A stretch of DNA of 4,264 nt from a virus (taxonomy: Duplodnaviria > Heunggongvirae > Uroviricota > Caudoviricetes), in the IMG/VR virus record IMGVR_UViG_2541047119_000017; one strand, given 5' to 3'. Under the pieces are notes generated by a model. The model did no database searches. It saw only the letters and a list, made by a program, of their open reading frames with translations, and was not told the origin of the DNA. Position numbers and translations under genes: made by a program. Positions 282 to 3,557 of this stretch are shown here, one piece after another. The stretch's first letter is position 1; each line of letters starts with the position of its first letter.

Positions 282-581
282 TTACTCGAGAGGAAATTGG
301 TTATGAATACAATCAAGTTTTCTTGCCCAGAATGTGGTGGCTAAGTCTTTGACACATCCTTTAAGCCGCAGGGCTCTGACAGTTTCGCGGGAGCCATCTG
401 CAAAAATTGTGGTCACCTTGTAACTGAAGATGAGTCCTCGCAGTTCGATGACGAAATCGTTGACAATATCTTCGGTGCACTCACCAGAGACTTTCTGAAG
501 TAAAGGCGCATACCGCTTAGTTACCGCTCTGATAACTCTTACCTGTCCGGCAATGGCGCTGATATCAATATAAAGCGCCAT
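282..581 (-). CDS. Hypothetical protein (99 aa), leftward early-operon cargo of unknown function
   Basis: Only uninterrupted ORF over 282..581 in any frame; no long plus-strand ORF competes. It lies downstream of and on the same strand as the repressor gene, where Qin carries the ydfABC-dicF-dicB cassette. Weak points: no convincing Shine-Dalgarno upstream of the ATG (AAAGAAACAGCG), and I do not recognise the protein. Confidence 0.4.
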   Translation of the reverse strand: MALYIDISAIAGQVRVIRAVTKRYAPLLQKVSGECTEDIVNDFVIELRGLIFSYKVTTIFADGSRETVRALRLKGCVKDLATTFWARKLDCIHNQFPLE

Positions 582-1556: not shown

Positions 1557-2091
1557 ACAGGTTTGTGAGGCTCTGGATACCTGGGTATGCCGACCAGGAA
1601 TGACACAGGAGCAGGCGACGATATTAATCACGGAAGCATTCTGGGCTCTGAAAGAACGCCCGAACATCGATGTTCAACGCGTCACGTTTAATGATGGCGA
1701 GGTTGATCAACGGGCGCTGGGCGTTAACCGGGTGAAGATATTCGAACGCTGGAAAGCTATCGACACCAGAGATAAGCGTGACAAATTCACGGCGCTGATT
1801 CCGGCAATTATGGAGGCTATCCGGATCAGCGATTTCAGATTGTATTGTGAAATTACTGACGGAAAAAGCATTACGTACATGATCGCCGGGTTAAACAAAG
1901 AATATGGCGATGTGGTGGAGTCCGGGCTGCTTTTTGCGGATCCAGTTGTTGTGGAACGTGAGACTGACGAGCTTATAGAAAAAGCTATTGCTTTCAAGCA
2001 CGCGTATCGTCAGCAATACCAATATTACTTTGCAGATAAACAAATGTCTGCCAGGGGGGCGTATGAGTATCGATGCACTACGATGGGCTAA
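1540..2091 (+). CDS. ydaT: YdaT-like protein (proposed functional analogue of CII in Rac/CP-933P-type prophages), 183 aa
   Basis: ORF 1540..2091, ATG overlapping the end of the cro-like gene by 17 nt, with a G-rich ribosome-binding region (GGGGCGG, 1523..1533). It occupies the cII position. The N-terminal MKI..E motif and the internal KFTALIPAIMEAI segment resemble what I recall of E. coli YdaT (MKI..., KIQKLIPAILAIL). Tentative family assignment. Confidence 0.65.
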   Translation: MKITTEQVCEALDTWVCRPGMTQEQATILITEAFWALKERPNIDVQRVTFNDGEVDQRALGVNRVKIFERWKAIDTRDKRDKFTALIPAIMEAIRISDFRLYCEITDGKSITYMIAGLNKEYGDVVESGLLFADPVVVERETDELIEKAIAFKHAYRQQYQYYFADKQMSARGAYEYRCTTMG

Positions 2092-3103
2092 AAAGGTGAA
2101 AACCGGCAGTTCATCCAGTAAGTCAGTATTGACCTGGCTTGCTGATATGTGCGGTGCCGATTTGTGTGCATACCCGTCTGTATCTGCACTGGCAGAAGTA
2201 ACGGAACTGAACAAAAAGACTGTGCAGGACAGCTTACGACACCTGATGGAGATTGGGTTAATTGTTGATACCGGTGAGAGAAAAGGCAGAACAAAGCAAA
2301 TTGTGGTGTACCGACTTATCGGTGTAGAAGAAAGTGTTGCCGAGCCTGAATACACCCAAAAACGGGAGTCTTTAAAGGTGGGTAAAATTGGTGCTGTTAA
2401 TAAAAACAGTACCGAAAATGGTTATGTTTCAGCACAAAACAGACCCAAAAACAGAACTCTTAGCTGCATGGAAAATAACCAAAGACACCCAAATTTTCCA
2501 TCAAAGACACCCAAAAACGGATCACGGAACCCAAAGGAACCCAAAGATCTAAACCCCACACATAACGCACGCGAGAGTGCTCCGACCAGTGAGCAGGAAG
2601 TTTTGTCGTTACAGGCAGCCCCCCCTGTATTCCTGTATGGCCTGAGCGAACCCATCGGAAAATTCCCGATGAGCGATAGCTGGTATCCGTCACGGGATTT
2701 TCGACGACGGGCTGCGTTGTGGGGGATGGCTTTGCCGGAGACAGAATTTACACCTGCTGAACTTGCCGCCTTCCGGGACTACTGGGCAGCGGAGGGGAAA
2801 GTGTTTACGCAGATTCAGTGGGAGCAGAAATTCGCCCGTCACGTAAATCACGTCAGGGCGCAGGTTAAACCAGTCAGCAAAGGGGTAAACCATGCAGCAG
2901 CACCAGGTGGCACCGCATCACGGGCAGTTCAGGAAATTCGGGCAGCACGTGAGCAGTGGGAACGTGAAAACGGATTTATCAGCAACGGAAACGGCCTGGA
3001 AGCTGTGGGAGCTCATGGGGGAGGTGTATTCGAACCGCTGGACTCAGAAGAACGGGGCCGCACCTTCGAAGCTCTGGATTGCCCAGATTGGTGCGATGAC
3101 TGA
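2063..3103 (+). CDS. Phage replication initiation protein (lambda O-like replisome organiser): N-terminal HTH domain plus C-terminal DnaT-like domain
   Basis: Long ORF 1988..3103; start preferred at ATG 2063 (MSIDALRWAKK...), which has an AGGGGGG Shine-Dalgarno at 2053..2059. The N-terminus (LRWAKKVKTGSSSSKSVLTWLADMCGADLCAYPSVSALAEVTELNKKTVQDSLRHLMEIGLI) is typical of phage replication-initiator HTH domains. The C-terminal region (WYPSRDFRRRAALWGMALPETEFTPAELAAFRDYWAAEGKVFTQIQWEQKFARHV) resembles the DnaT-type DNA-binding domain found in many enterobacterial prophage replication proteins. The two are joined by a low-complexity Pro/Lys/Asn-rich linker. Confidence 0.85.
   Translation: MSIDALRWAKKVKTGSSSSKSVLTWLADMCGADLCAYPSVSALAEVTELNKKTVQDSLRHLMEIGLIVDTGERKGRTKQIVVYRLIGVEESVAEPEYTQKRESLKVGKIGAVNKNSTENGYVSAQNRPKNRTLSCMENNQRHPNFPSKTPKNGSRNPKEPKDLNPTHNARESAPTSEQEVLSLQAAPPVFLYGLSEPIGKFPMSDSWYPSRDFRRRAALWGMALPETEFTPAELAAFRDYWAAEGKVFTQIQWEQKFARHVNHVRAQVKPVSKGVNHAAAPGGTASRAVQEIRAAREQWERENGFISNGNGLEAVGAHGGGVFEPLDSEERGRTFEALDCPDWCDD
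2436..2546. repeat. Iteron-like direct repeats inside the initiator gene (candidate origin of replication)
   Basis: CAAAGACACCCAAA occurs at 2480..2493 and 2502..2515 (22-bp period). A related AAAACAGACCCAAAAAC is at 2436..2452. A tandem 10-bp unit GAACCCAAAG is at 2527..2536 and 2537..2546. The CCCAAA core begins at 2444, 2488, 2510, 2530 and 2540, i.e. at multiples of roughly 10 to 11 bp. An AT-rich stretch lies just upstream (about 2391..2440). In lambda the ori iterons also lie in the middle of gene O. Confidence 0.5.
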
Positions 3104-3557
3104 ACAGCAAATCCGGCAGGTCTGCCGTCAGTGCATGGACCGCTGCCGGGCGGGTGAAACGTGGCCTCCGGACCTGGCTGAGTTTGTTGCGCTGATTTCG
3201 GAGAGTGGGGCAAATCCATTTGGTCTTACGGTGGATGCCGTGATGGAAGAGTACCGGCGCTGGCGCAATGAATCCTGGCGATACGACGGGAGTGATAAAT
3301 ACCCGTGGCCACAGCCGGTGCTGTACCACATTTGCCTCGAGATGCGTGACAGAGGGATTGAGCGGCAGATGACGGAAGGTGAGTTAAAACGACTTGCAGA
3401 ACGGCAACTGACGAAATGGGCAAAGCAAGTTGGTAACGGGATGAGTATTCCCCCGATCCGGAGACAACTCGCATCGCCGAAGTGCCCGCAAGGGCCAACG
3501 CCAATTGAATTACTGAAACAGGAATACGAGCGCCGGAAGGCGGCTGGTTTTGTTTGA
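2892..3557 (+). CDS. Lambda P-like replication protein (helicase loader), 221 aa
   Basis: ORF 2892..3557 with AAGGGG Shine-Dalgarno at 2880..2885 (6-nt spacer). Segments YPWPQPVLYHICLEMRDRGIERQMTEGELKRLAERQL and WPPDLAEFVALISESGANPFGL align by eye with lambda P (YPWKSNAHYWLVTNLYQNMRANALTDAELRRKAADEL and PSPGQFVAWCREEASVTAGLP). With this start the gene overlaps the initiator gene by 212 nt in another frame. Alternative in-frame starts at 3015 or 3096 would shorten the N-terminus. Confidence 0.8.
   Translation: MQQHQVAPHHGQFRKFGQHVSSGNVKTDLSATETAWKLWELMGEVYSNRWTQKNGAAPSKLWIAQIGAMTEQQIRQVCRQCMDRCRAGETWPPDLAEFVALISESGANPFGLTVDAVMEEYRRWRNESWRYDGSDKYPWPQPVLYHICLEMRDRGIERQMTEGELKRLAERQLTKWAKQVGNGMSIPPIRRQLASPKCPQGPTPIELLKQEYERRKAAGFV

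Follow-up and report, generated by a model that had tools for sequence, protein, structure and literature searches.

A conserved 212-nt out-of-frame overlap, probably dual coding, between the initiator and helicase-loader genes of a lambdoid prophage

The replication region of a tailed virus (Caudoviricetes; IMG/VR record IMGVR_UViG_2541047119_000017), analyzed here as a window of 4,264 nucleotides (nt), raises the question of whether two successive genes of one pathway can share 70 codons of DNA in different frames. The genes encode a replication initiator and a putative helicase loader resembling lambda P, and their open reading frames (ORFs) overlap out of frame between positions 2892 and 3103. 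As long co-directional overlaps (>60 bp) in prokaryotic annotations are mostly mispredictions (PMC2478687), one that is conserved is unusual. A sequence-only reading of the window had offered three options, namely, a genuinely dual-coding segment, a later start of the loader (3015 or 3096), or a frame extended by an indel. Comparative data across approximately 35 loci favored the first. Accordingly, it is regarded as quite probable that both genes are real over 2892–3103, with the loader most likely read from ATG 2892 (221 amino acids, aa) and the initiator read to TGA 3103 (346 aa). Translation of both frames is what we infer from the sequence.

The ORF check returned the coordinates of the 212-nt out-of-frame overlap exactly as they had been given. 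The initiator gene occupies 2063–3103 on the plus strand, with ATG 2063 as its best start and TGA 3101–3103 as its stop, and an identical 1041-nt initiator coding sequence is annotated by the pipeline PGAP and by DDBJ in relatives. The long form of the loader gene lies on the same strand at 2892–3557, from ATG 2892 to TGA 3557. The shared DNA comprises the last 70 initiator codons and the first 70 loader codons; the loader wobble position falls on the first position of the initiator codon, and the second loader position falls on the initiator wobble. Six bases 5' of the loader ATG ends a Shine–Dalgarno (SD) sequence, AAAGGGG (2879–2885, plus strand), and a loader-phase TAA follows it at 2886–2888. 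The good SD that had been noted for the 2892 start was borne out, as its duplex with the anti-SD sequence was calculated at −7.9 kcal/mol in the window. Internal ATGs in the loader frame are found at 3015, 3096, and 3135. The end of the overlap had been described as an ATGA-type junction. The in-frame ATG at 3096 and the TGA at 3101–3103 are indeed present, but they form ATGACTGA, which is an 8-nt overlap and not the 4-nt ATGA.

The arrangement was found to be widespread. DNA similar to the window was present in 1,253 of the 5,426 complete E. coli genomes, with the overlap in the same relative frame, and the same arrangement occurred in approximately 30 other enterobacterial species. The nearest phage records were PPompW and Stx2a phages (95% identical) and Rac-SA53 (88–89%). 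Among 84 close relatives (viral contigs and phage records), the overlap showed no indel except for a 3-nt deletion near its start. The proposal that a sequencing or mutational indel had extended one frame in this window alone is refuted by this conservation across hundreds of genomes; only the unusual length of the overlap speaks for it, and its probability is considered negligible.

The comparison was based on 34 loci taken from contigs of one genome per species, together with phage and E. coli records, giving approximately 35 loci that span more than 15 genera of enterobacteria. The quantitative tests did without L029–L031 (loader phase open far upstream) and without the frameshifted or pseudogene loci L037 and L041. 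Homologues in which the initiator gene stops near 2890 were looked for, and none was found among the initiator-bearing loci; in every one of them the initiator frame is open for 149–263 nt beyond the loader ATG, and the relative frame is constant. The openness of the initiator frame was evaluated at sites where a loader-silent T before AA, AG, or GA would create an initiator-phase stop. In the loader-only part, T was found at 28% of such sites (277/979, 35 loci), versus 0/401 in the overlap. The window alone contains 11 such sites, for which the chance expectation of an open frame is approximately 0.03. The converse holds for the loader phase, as stops in that phase appear at 0.042 per codon in the initiator-only part, that is, at 38% (366/960) of the possible sites, versus 0/187 in the overlap. 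Both frames are open beyond chance over the overlap in divergent relatives.

The same signal was resolved further within the overlap. Over the part from 2991 onwards, initiator-linked loci carried no T at the sites able to create a stop ahead of alignment index 23 (~nt 3063), and these sites vary among G, C, and A. At loader codon 47, 30 of the 34 loci have G as the wobble base, although the encoded residue varies among S, A, T, and G. The sole T before index 23 was found in the initiator-less orphan L039. Two chromosomal loader genes of Erwinia, L032:2492-3118 and L039:2474-3043, have no initiator or prophage genes nearby and serve as a natural control for the constraint on the initiator frame. 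Both keep the N-terminal motif of the loader, neither has G at codon 47, and L039 carries initiator-phase stops. These orphans may be remnants or domesticated copies, and the neighbors of L032 look, by sequence, like ttcA and dbpA. Separately, one IMG/VR contig (L067) was observed with a premature initiator stop at the equivalent of 2867–2869, just 5' of the initiator tail, and with an intact loader ORF; it is possibly a defective prophage.

As for the start of the loader, existing annotations disagree. The equivalent of 3096 (153 aa) is used by PGAP in E. coli and by the Rac-SA53 record, 3135 (140 aa) by the DDBJ records of PPompW, and the equivalent of 3015 (~180 aa) by PGAP in other genera, while further records give 221–223 aa. 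Accordingly, conservation and initiation signals were compared among these codons. The loader-phase ORF opens 0–16 codons 5' of the 2892-equivalent ATG in essentially all of the approximately 35 loci, and that ATG was present in 28/28 scored loci, making it the only universal loader start. At this codon the mean anti-SD duplex energy was −8.8 kcal/mol (28 loci, a GGAGG-type site), versus −5.4 at Met42 and −4.05 kcal/mol at Met69; the background over all codons was −3.0, with a 5th percentile of −7.0 kcal/mol.

The ATG at 3096–3098 (plus strand) encodes Met69 of the long form, forms ATGACTGA with the initiator stop, and is probably internal. A loader starting there (the RefSeq form in E. coli) or at 3135, coupled to initiator termination at ATGACTGA, would leave no meaningful overlap. 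Existing annotations support this explanation, as does the conservation of the ATG/TGA junction in the Escherichia–Klebsiella–Citrobacter clade. However, Met69 is replaced by Leu or Cys in L025, L033, L035, L038, and L040, the position of the initiator stop is variable there, and the value of −4.05 kcal/mol amounts to no SD. Moreover, a start at 3096 or 3135 would discard six invariant loader residues located 5' of Met69, namely, W50, K53, N54, G55, P58, and W62 (alignments of 57–69 relatives), and the match of the loader to the Pfam P-domain family PF06992 (60.9 bits, cut-off 26, residues 56–188) begins ahead of it as well. Strong purifying selection on the loader frame in 2991–3101, described below, is also inconsistent with such a late start. 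Thus, initiation only at 3096 or 3135 is considered very improbable, while a minor internal isoform may occur.

Structure prediction pointed in the same direction. The AlphaFold2 (AF2) model of the 221-aa loader had a mean predicted local distance difference test (pLDDT) score of 76.5, with residues 1–27 disordered (pLDDT <50), helices at residues 26–46, 48–54, and 60–67 (pLDDT ~84), and a further helix at 71–86. Its best Foldseek match was full-length lambda P in the DnaB–lambda P complex (9oa1_Z, 215 columns, E 1.8e-6), and the top matches were the lambda P chains 9oa1_Z, V, and Y, with a probability of 1.0, 197–215 aligned columns, and a template modeling (TM) score of ~0.5. Lambda P is laid out as a disordered domain I (1–29), domain II (~30–119), and domains III and IV (PMC12661323). 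On this layout, initiation at 3096 would cost the loader half of domain II, including the three predicted helices ahead of Met69. The argument from the length of lambda P, by which the first 68 residues had been held necessary, stands only roughly, as 68 residues precede the T(M)EQ segment in the window versus 80 in lambda P. Homology of residues 1–68 to lambda P was not shown by hmmsearch or hhalign, which detect it only from residue ~69–85. Therefore, the argument for the N-terminus rests on the predicted structure and the Foldseek matches.

The ATG at 3015–3017 (plus strand), which encodes Met42, was the strongest competitor. It is the PGAP start in Citrobacter, Klebsiella, and Salmonella relatives, and on this explanation the loader would be ~180 aa long, the overlap would shrink to 89 nt, and the loader-frame ORF upstream would be an untranslated by-product. 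Met42 is nearly invariant, TGGGAG stands three bases upstream, many database proteins of 177–181 aa begin there, and selection on the loader frame in 2895–2990 is near neutral (see below). However, L024 and L028 have CTG (Leu) in place of Met42, which falls in the middle of predicted helix 26–46 and lies downstream of the conserved W36/W39. A start at 3015 would also leave the universal 2892-type ATG, its much stronger SD, and the opening of the loader phase just ahead of it without an explanation, as well as the absence of loader-phase stops (0/187) and the lowered initiator-silent diversity in 2894–2989. Even then, an 89-nt out-of-frame overlap would remain. Hence, 3015 as the universal start is judged rather unlikely; it may serve as the start of a second isoform, but Met42 is probably internal to the protein read from 2892. 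Taken together, the late starts proposed in the sequence-only reading were not upheld, since neither Met69 nor Met42 is conserved in distant relatives.

Given that both frames are probably coding, the selection acting on each was determined along the overlap. Diversity by phase was calculated from a gap-consistent alignment of 23 sequences, and the values are given in the order of loader positions 1/2/3. Upstream of the overlap they were 0.24/0.50/0.25, the periodicity of the initiator, which persisted in weakened form in 2895–2990 (0.27/0.40/0.32). In 2991–3100 the values were 0.135/0.10/0.37, the periodicity of the loader, as downstream of the overlap (0.17/0.11/0.50). The dominant frame switches at approximately 2985. 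The overlap can be divided accordingly into an initiator-dominated part A (2892–2990, plus strand), which encodes the initiator tail segment TASRAVQEIRAAREQWERENG over a poorly conserved loader leader (residues 1–33, predicted to be disordered), and a loader-dominated part B (2991–3103, plus strand), which encodes the first domain II helices (AWKLWELMGEVYSNRWTQKNGAAPSKLWIAQIG) over the last 37 initiator residues.

The ratio of nonsynonymous to synonymous differences (pN/pS, Nei–Gojobori) followed the same division. For the initiator it was 0.35 in its own region, 0.58 in part A, and 1.96 in part B; for the loader it was 0.21 in its own region, 0.88 in part A, and 0.20 in part B. In each half, synonymous diversity (pS) of the dominant frame was lowered, for the initiator frame in part A (2894–2989) to 0.466 versus 0.669 (p<5e-5, codon resampling) and for the loader frame in part B to 0.533 versus 0.662 (p=0.0004, codon resampling). 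From the sequence comparison, each frame thus appears to constrain the other somewhat, and other causes of synonymous constraint are possible. No alternative non-coding element accounts for it: the Rfam scan of the window returned no RNA family, and the scan for promoters and terminators gave nothing beyond the shuffled expectation. Among the 53 haplotypes of close relatives, 15 polymorphisms in part A were initiator-silent and 6 were loader-silent, while in part B 16 were loader-silent and 5 were initiator-silent. The expectation that the overlap constrains the evolution of both proteins is refined by these results, as the constraint proved asymmetric; one frame dominates each half, and the other stays open but is nearly free to evolve.

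The sharp switch at ~2982–2990 from initiator to loader conservation could also mark a programmed frameshift near 2985, which would fuse the initiator, up to and including the conserved segment of its tail, to loader domains II–IV. The database protein P0107 and the Leclercia locus L037 do read as such fusions. However, this mechanism would require a +1 (or −2) shift, the site has neither a conserved slippery sequence nor an in-frame stop, and the local sequence differs between clades. It would also not explain why an SD and an ATG are conserved 31 codons upstream or why 37 further initiator codons are open downstream. P0107 has a second, C-terminal frameshift and the source of L037 is a long-read assembly, which makes errors or pseudogenes the likely origin of both. 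A fusion of this kind is considered very improbable. As an observation in its own right, the tail–loader sequences of L037:2438-3147 (Leclercia NCTC13032) and P0107, frameshifted or fused inside the overlap, are most likely assembly errors or pseudogenes.

Several points weigh against dual coding of the whole overlap from ATG 2892. Purifying selection on the amino acids of both frames at the same sites was not found, the passenger frame having a pN/pS of 0.88 in part A and 1.96 in part B, and radical passenger-frame changes (R>W, R>C, F>S) segregate among close relatives. Accordingly, the loader leader and the last ~35 initiator residues may have little sequence-specific function. The motifs EPLD.EERG and LD..DW in the distal tail of the initiator are largely forced by conserved loader codons. 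Moreover, the SD and off-frame-stop statistics count loci as independent despite their common ancestry. A second loader isoform of shorter length may exist, given that Met42 is nearly invariant and has GGGAG three bases ahead of it, and the docking function of the initiator tail proposed below is drawn from co-variation and analogy.

The two distal-tail motifs had been candidates for independent conservation in the initiator frame and were rejected, as the codon table shows them to be forced by the loader and the W/R alternation in the initiator corresponds to silent Ile changes in the loader.

With these points considered, dual coding from ATG 2892 is best described as follows. From 2892 to ~2985, selection acts mainly on the initiator frame, in which the conserved and probably helical tail segment TASRAVQEIRAAREQWERENG is encoded, and the first ~30 loader residues form a predicted disordered, freely evolving leader positioned like the disordered domain I of lambda P. 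From ~2985 to 3103, the loader frame is the main target of selection, and the first three predicted helices of domain II are encoded there. The last ~35 initiator residues evolve freely, but in none of the initiator-bearing loci compared does their frame contain a stop before ~nt 3065.

The initiator itself was then considered. It had been called O-like, and the role of an initiator fits; however, the protein is no homologue of lambda O and gave no match to Phage_rep_O (PF04492). Instead, Pfam identified PF17948 DnaT (61 bits, cut-off 25), a DnaT-like domain binding single-stranded DNA, at initiator residues 201–267 (2663–2863, plus strand), and a weak HTH_36 match at nt 2168–2263. The DnaT-type body gives way at ~nt 2881 to a C-terminal tail (2882–3100, plus strand; residues 274–346, GVNHAAAPGGTASRAVQEIRAAREQWERENG...EPLDSEERG...LDCPDWCDD). 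All but the first 3–4 residues of this tail lie inside the loader ORF, and the start of the tail coincides with the loader SD.

The same tail was found on at least five different initiator bodies. These comprised HTH_36 with DnaT, DnaT with other N-termini, Phage_rep_O, DUF1376 without DnaT, HTH_36 with the C-terminal domain of lambda O (50% identical to lambda O residues 159–268), and bodies with no Pfam match. In L023, for example, a relative of the window loader is paired with a true Phage_rep_O initiator. When the 80-aa tail was used by itself as a protein-database query, eight short E. coli fragments were the only matches, and its distribution did not emerge from them. The reverse combination was found in phage TL-2011b. 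The DnaT body of its gp12 is 71% identical to window residues 157–273, and the similarity ends at 273; beyond this point gp12 carries a lambda-O-type tail, LDWNNTDWIEGV (lambda LDLTNTDWIYGV). Its loader gp13, which overlaps gp12 by 29 nt, is a lambda-type P (39% identical to lambda P). Since a body like that of the window is combined here with a lambda-type tail and a lambda-type P, the tail goes with the loader and not with the body; as far as these sequences indicate, tail type tracks loader type.

According to classical lambda genetics, the C-terminal part of lambda O contacts P. An open-access statement of which parts of lambda O and P touch was not found in the literature. Because the tail tracks the loader type, its junction coincides with the loader start, and lambda O makes this contact, the initiator tail may, by analogy with the C-terminal part of lambda O, be a loader-specific docking element. 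As the tail lies inside the loader gene, a loader cassette would bring its matching tail along, and recombination just 5' of the loader SD could place the cassette after origin-binding bodies of unrelated kinds. In that case, initiator–loader specificity would be hard-wired by the overlap as an evolved device, with the docking tail in the alternative frame and the cassette supplying the adaptor for unrelated bodies, and the segments encoded by the shared DNA may even contact each other. This proposal is tentative, and we consider it somewhat short of an even chance.

Beside this tail, a second one was observed. TL-2011b gp12 (L043:1236-2060) and lambda O (L042:187-1086) have unrelated bodies, of the DnaT and Phage_rep_O types, respectively, share the end motif LD(W/L)xNTDWIxGV, and are each followed by a lambda-type P. 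On sequence grounds, this motif is a candidate for the minimal P-docking motif of the lambda-type loader.

The loader belongs to the lambda P family PF06992, with a predicted fold of domains II–IV, and would load DnaB by analogy. In addition to the structural matches, the loader-family profile matched the lambda P chains 8v9t and 8v9s (E 4e-6), with an hhalign probability of 92%. The window pair resembles the lambda O–P module in its order (initiator, then helicase loader), in its PF06992 loader with a predicted fold like that of lambda P, in the iteron-like repeats, a putative origin, inside the initiator gene, and in a C-terminal initiator segment that co-varies with the loader. Unlike lambda, whose O and P genes share 4 nt (ATGA), the window has a 212-nt overlap, its initiator has HTH_36 and DnaT-like domains without Phage_rep_O, and its tail of ~70 aa is unrelated in sequence to the 15-aa LDLTNTDWIYGVDL end of lambda O. 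TL-2011b gp12/gp13 shares the DnaT-like initiator body and the PF06992 loader immediately downstream but differs in its short lambda-O-type tail, its 29-nt overlap, and its lambda-type loader. The pairs of Rac-SA53 (ydaU/ydaV), PPompW, and RefSeq (DnaT-like/'replication protein P') are the same genes at 88–95% nucleotide identity, but their loaders are annotated as 153 or 140 aa, without the long overlap.

Long same-strand overlapping or embedded genes are known from phages, as in lambda Rz/Rz1, phiX174 A/B/K/E, and the MS2 lysis gene. The window overlap is like these in that one strand is read in two frames over tens of codons under asymmetric constraint. However, the products of the window pair come from two successive genes that act in the same pathway, and dominance passes from one frame to the other midway through the overlap.

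The PF06992 loader, the DnaT-like initiator, the O–P-type module, and, in principle, long overlaps in phages are known already. A limited search of the literature and annotations returned no description of a conserved 70-codon co-directional overlap of initiator and loader, of a hand-over of selection in mid-overlap, or of a loader-specific tail encoded within the loader gene. The loader occurs in approximately a quarter of complete E. coli genomes and in many Enterobacterales, with three to four N-termini in use (140, 153, ~180, and 221–223 aa). In the RefSeq form that is most common, 68 residues are probably missing, among them the six invariant positions and one half of domain II. As such overlaps are usually mispredictions, a well-supported and conserved overlap of 70 co-directional codons is a rare and useful case, with a frame switch in its middle that lends itself to a clean test of overlapping-gene detection methods. 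The docking hypothesis, in turn, points to where initiator–loader specificity may reside and to how the replication modules of mosaic prophages could stay matched during recombination.

Separate from the overlap, iteron-like direct repeats with an ACCCAAA core (6–7 copies) were found at 2349–2545 (plus strand), in the low-complexity linker of the initiator between the helix-turn-helix and DnaT domains. Within them, ACCCAAANNNNG has 3 exact matches versus 0.17 expected. Judged from the sequence, these repeats are probably the phage origin, as lambda ori lies inside O.

According to the ORF listing and Pfam, the window represents the region for immunity and replication in an enterobacterial prophage of the lambdoid (Rac/PPompW-like) type. 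A DicA-like repressor gene is encoded on the minus strand (845–1252), followed by a Cro/DicC-like gene (1329–1556), a YdaT-like gene (1540–2091), the initiator and loader genes, and a DUF1627 gene from 3591 onwards. The rightward operon is tightly packed throughout and has out-of-frame junctions; the cro-like and ydaT-like genes overlap by 17 nt (1540–1556), and the ydaT-like and initiator genes overlap by 29 nt (2063–2091).

Two minor observations were made in addition. A small zinc-ribbon ORF at 303–503 (plus strand), reading MNTIKFSCPECGG-stop-VFDTSFKPQGSDSFAGAICKNCGHLV..., is broken by an in-frame TAA at 342–344 and may be a nonsense-mutated gene or a candidate for read-through. Furthermore, the record PP818812.1 (L003, 'Actinobacillus phage vB_Apl-pPE4'), for which the host is recorded as Actinobacillus pleuropneumoniae, matches Rac-like prophage DNA of E. 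coli at 89–91% identity over the region. Such a match would not be expected if the host belonged to the Pasteurellaceae, and it points to a wrong host assignment or to contamination.

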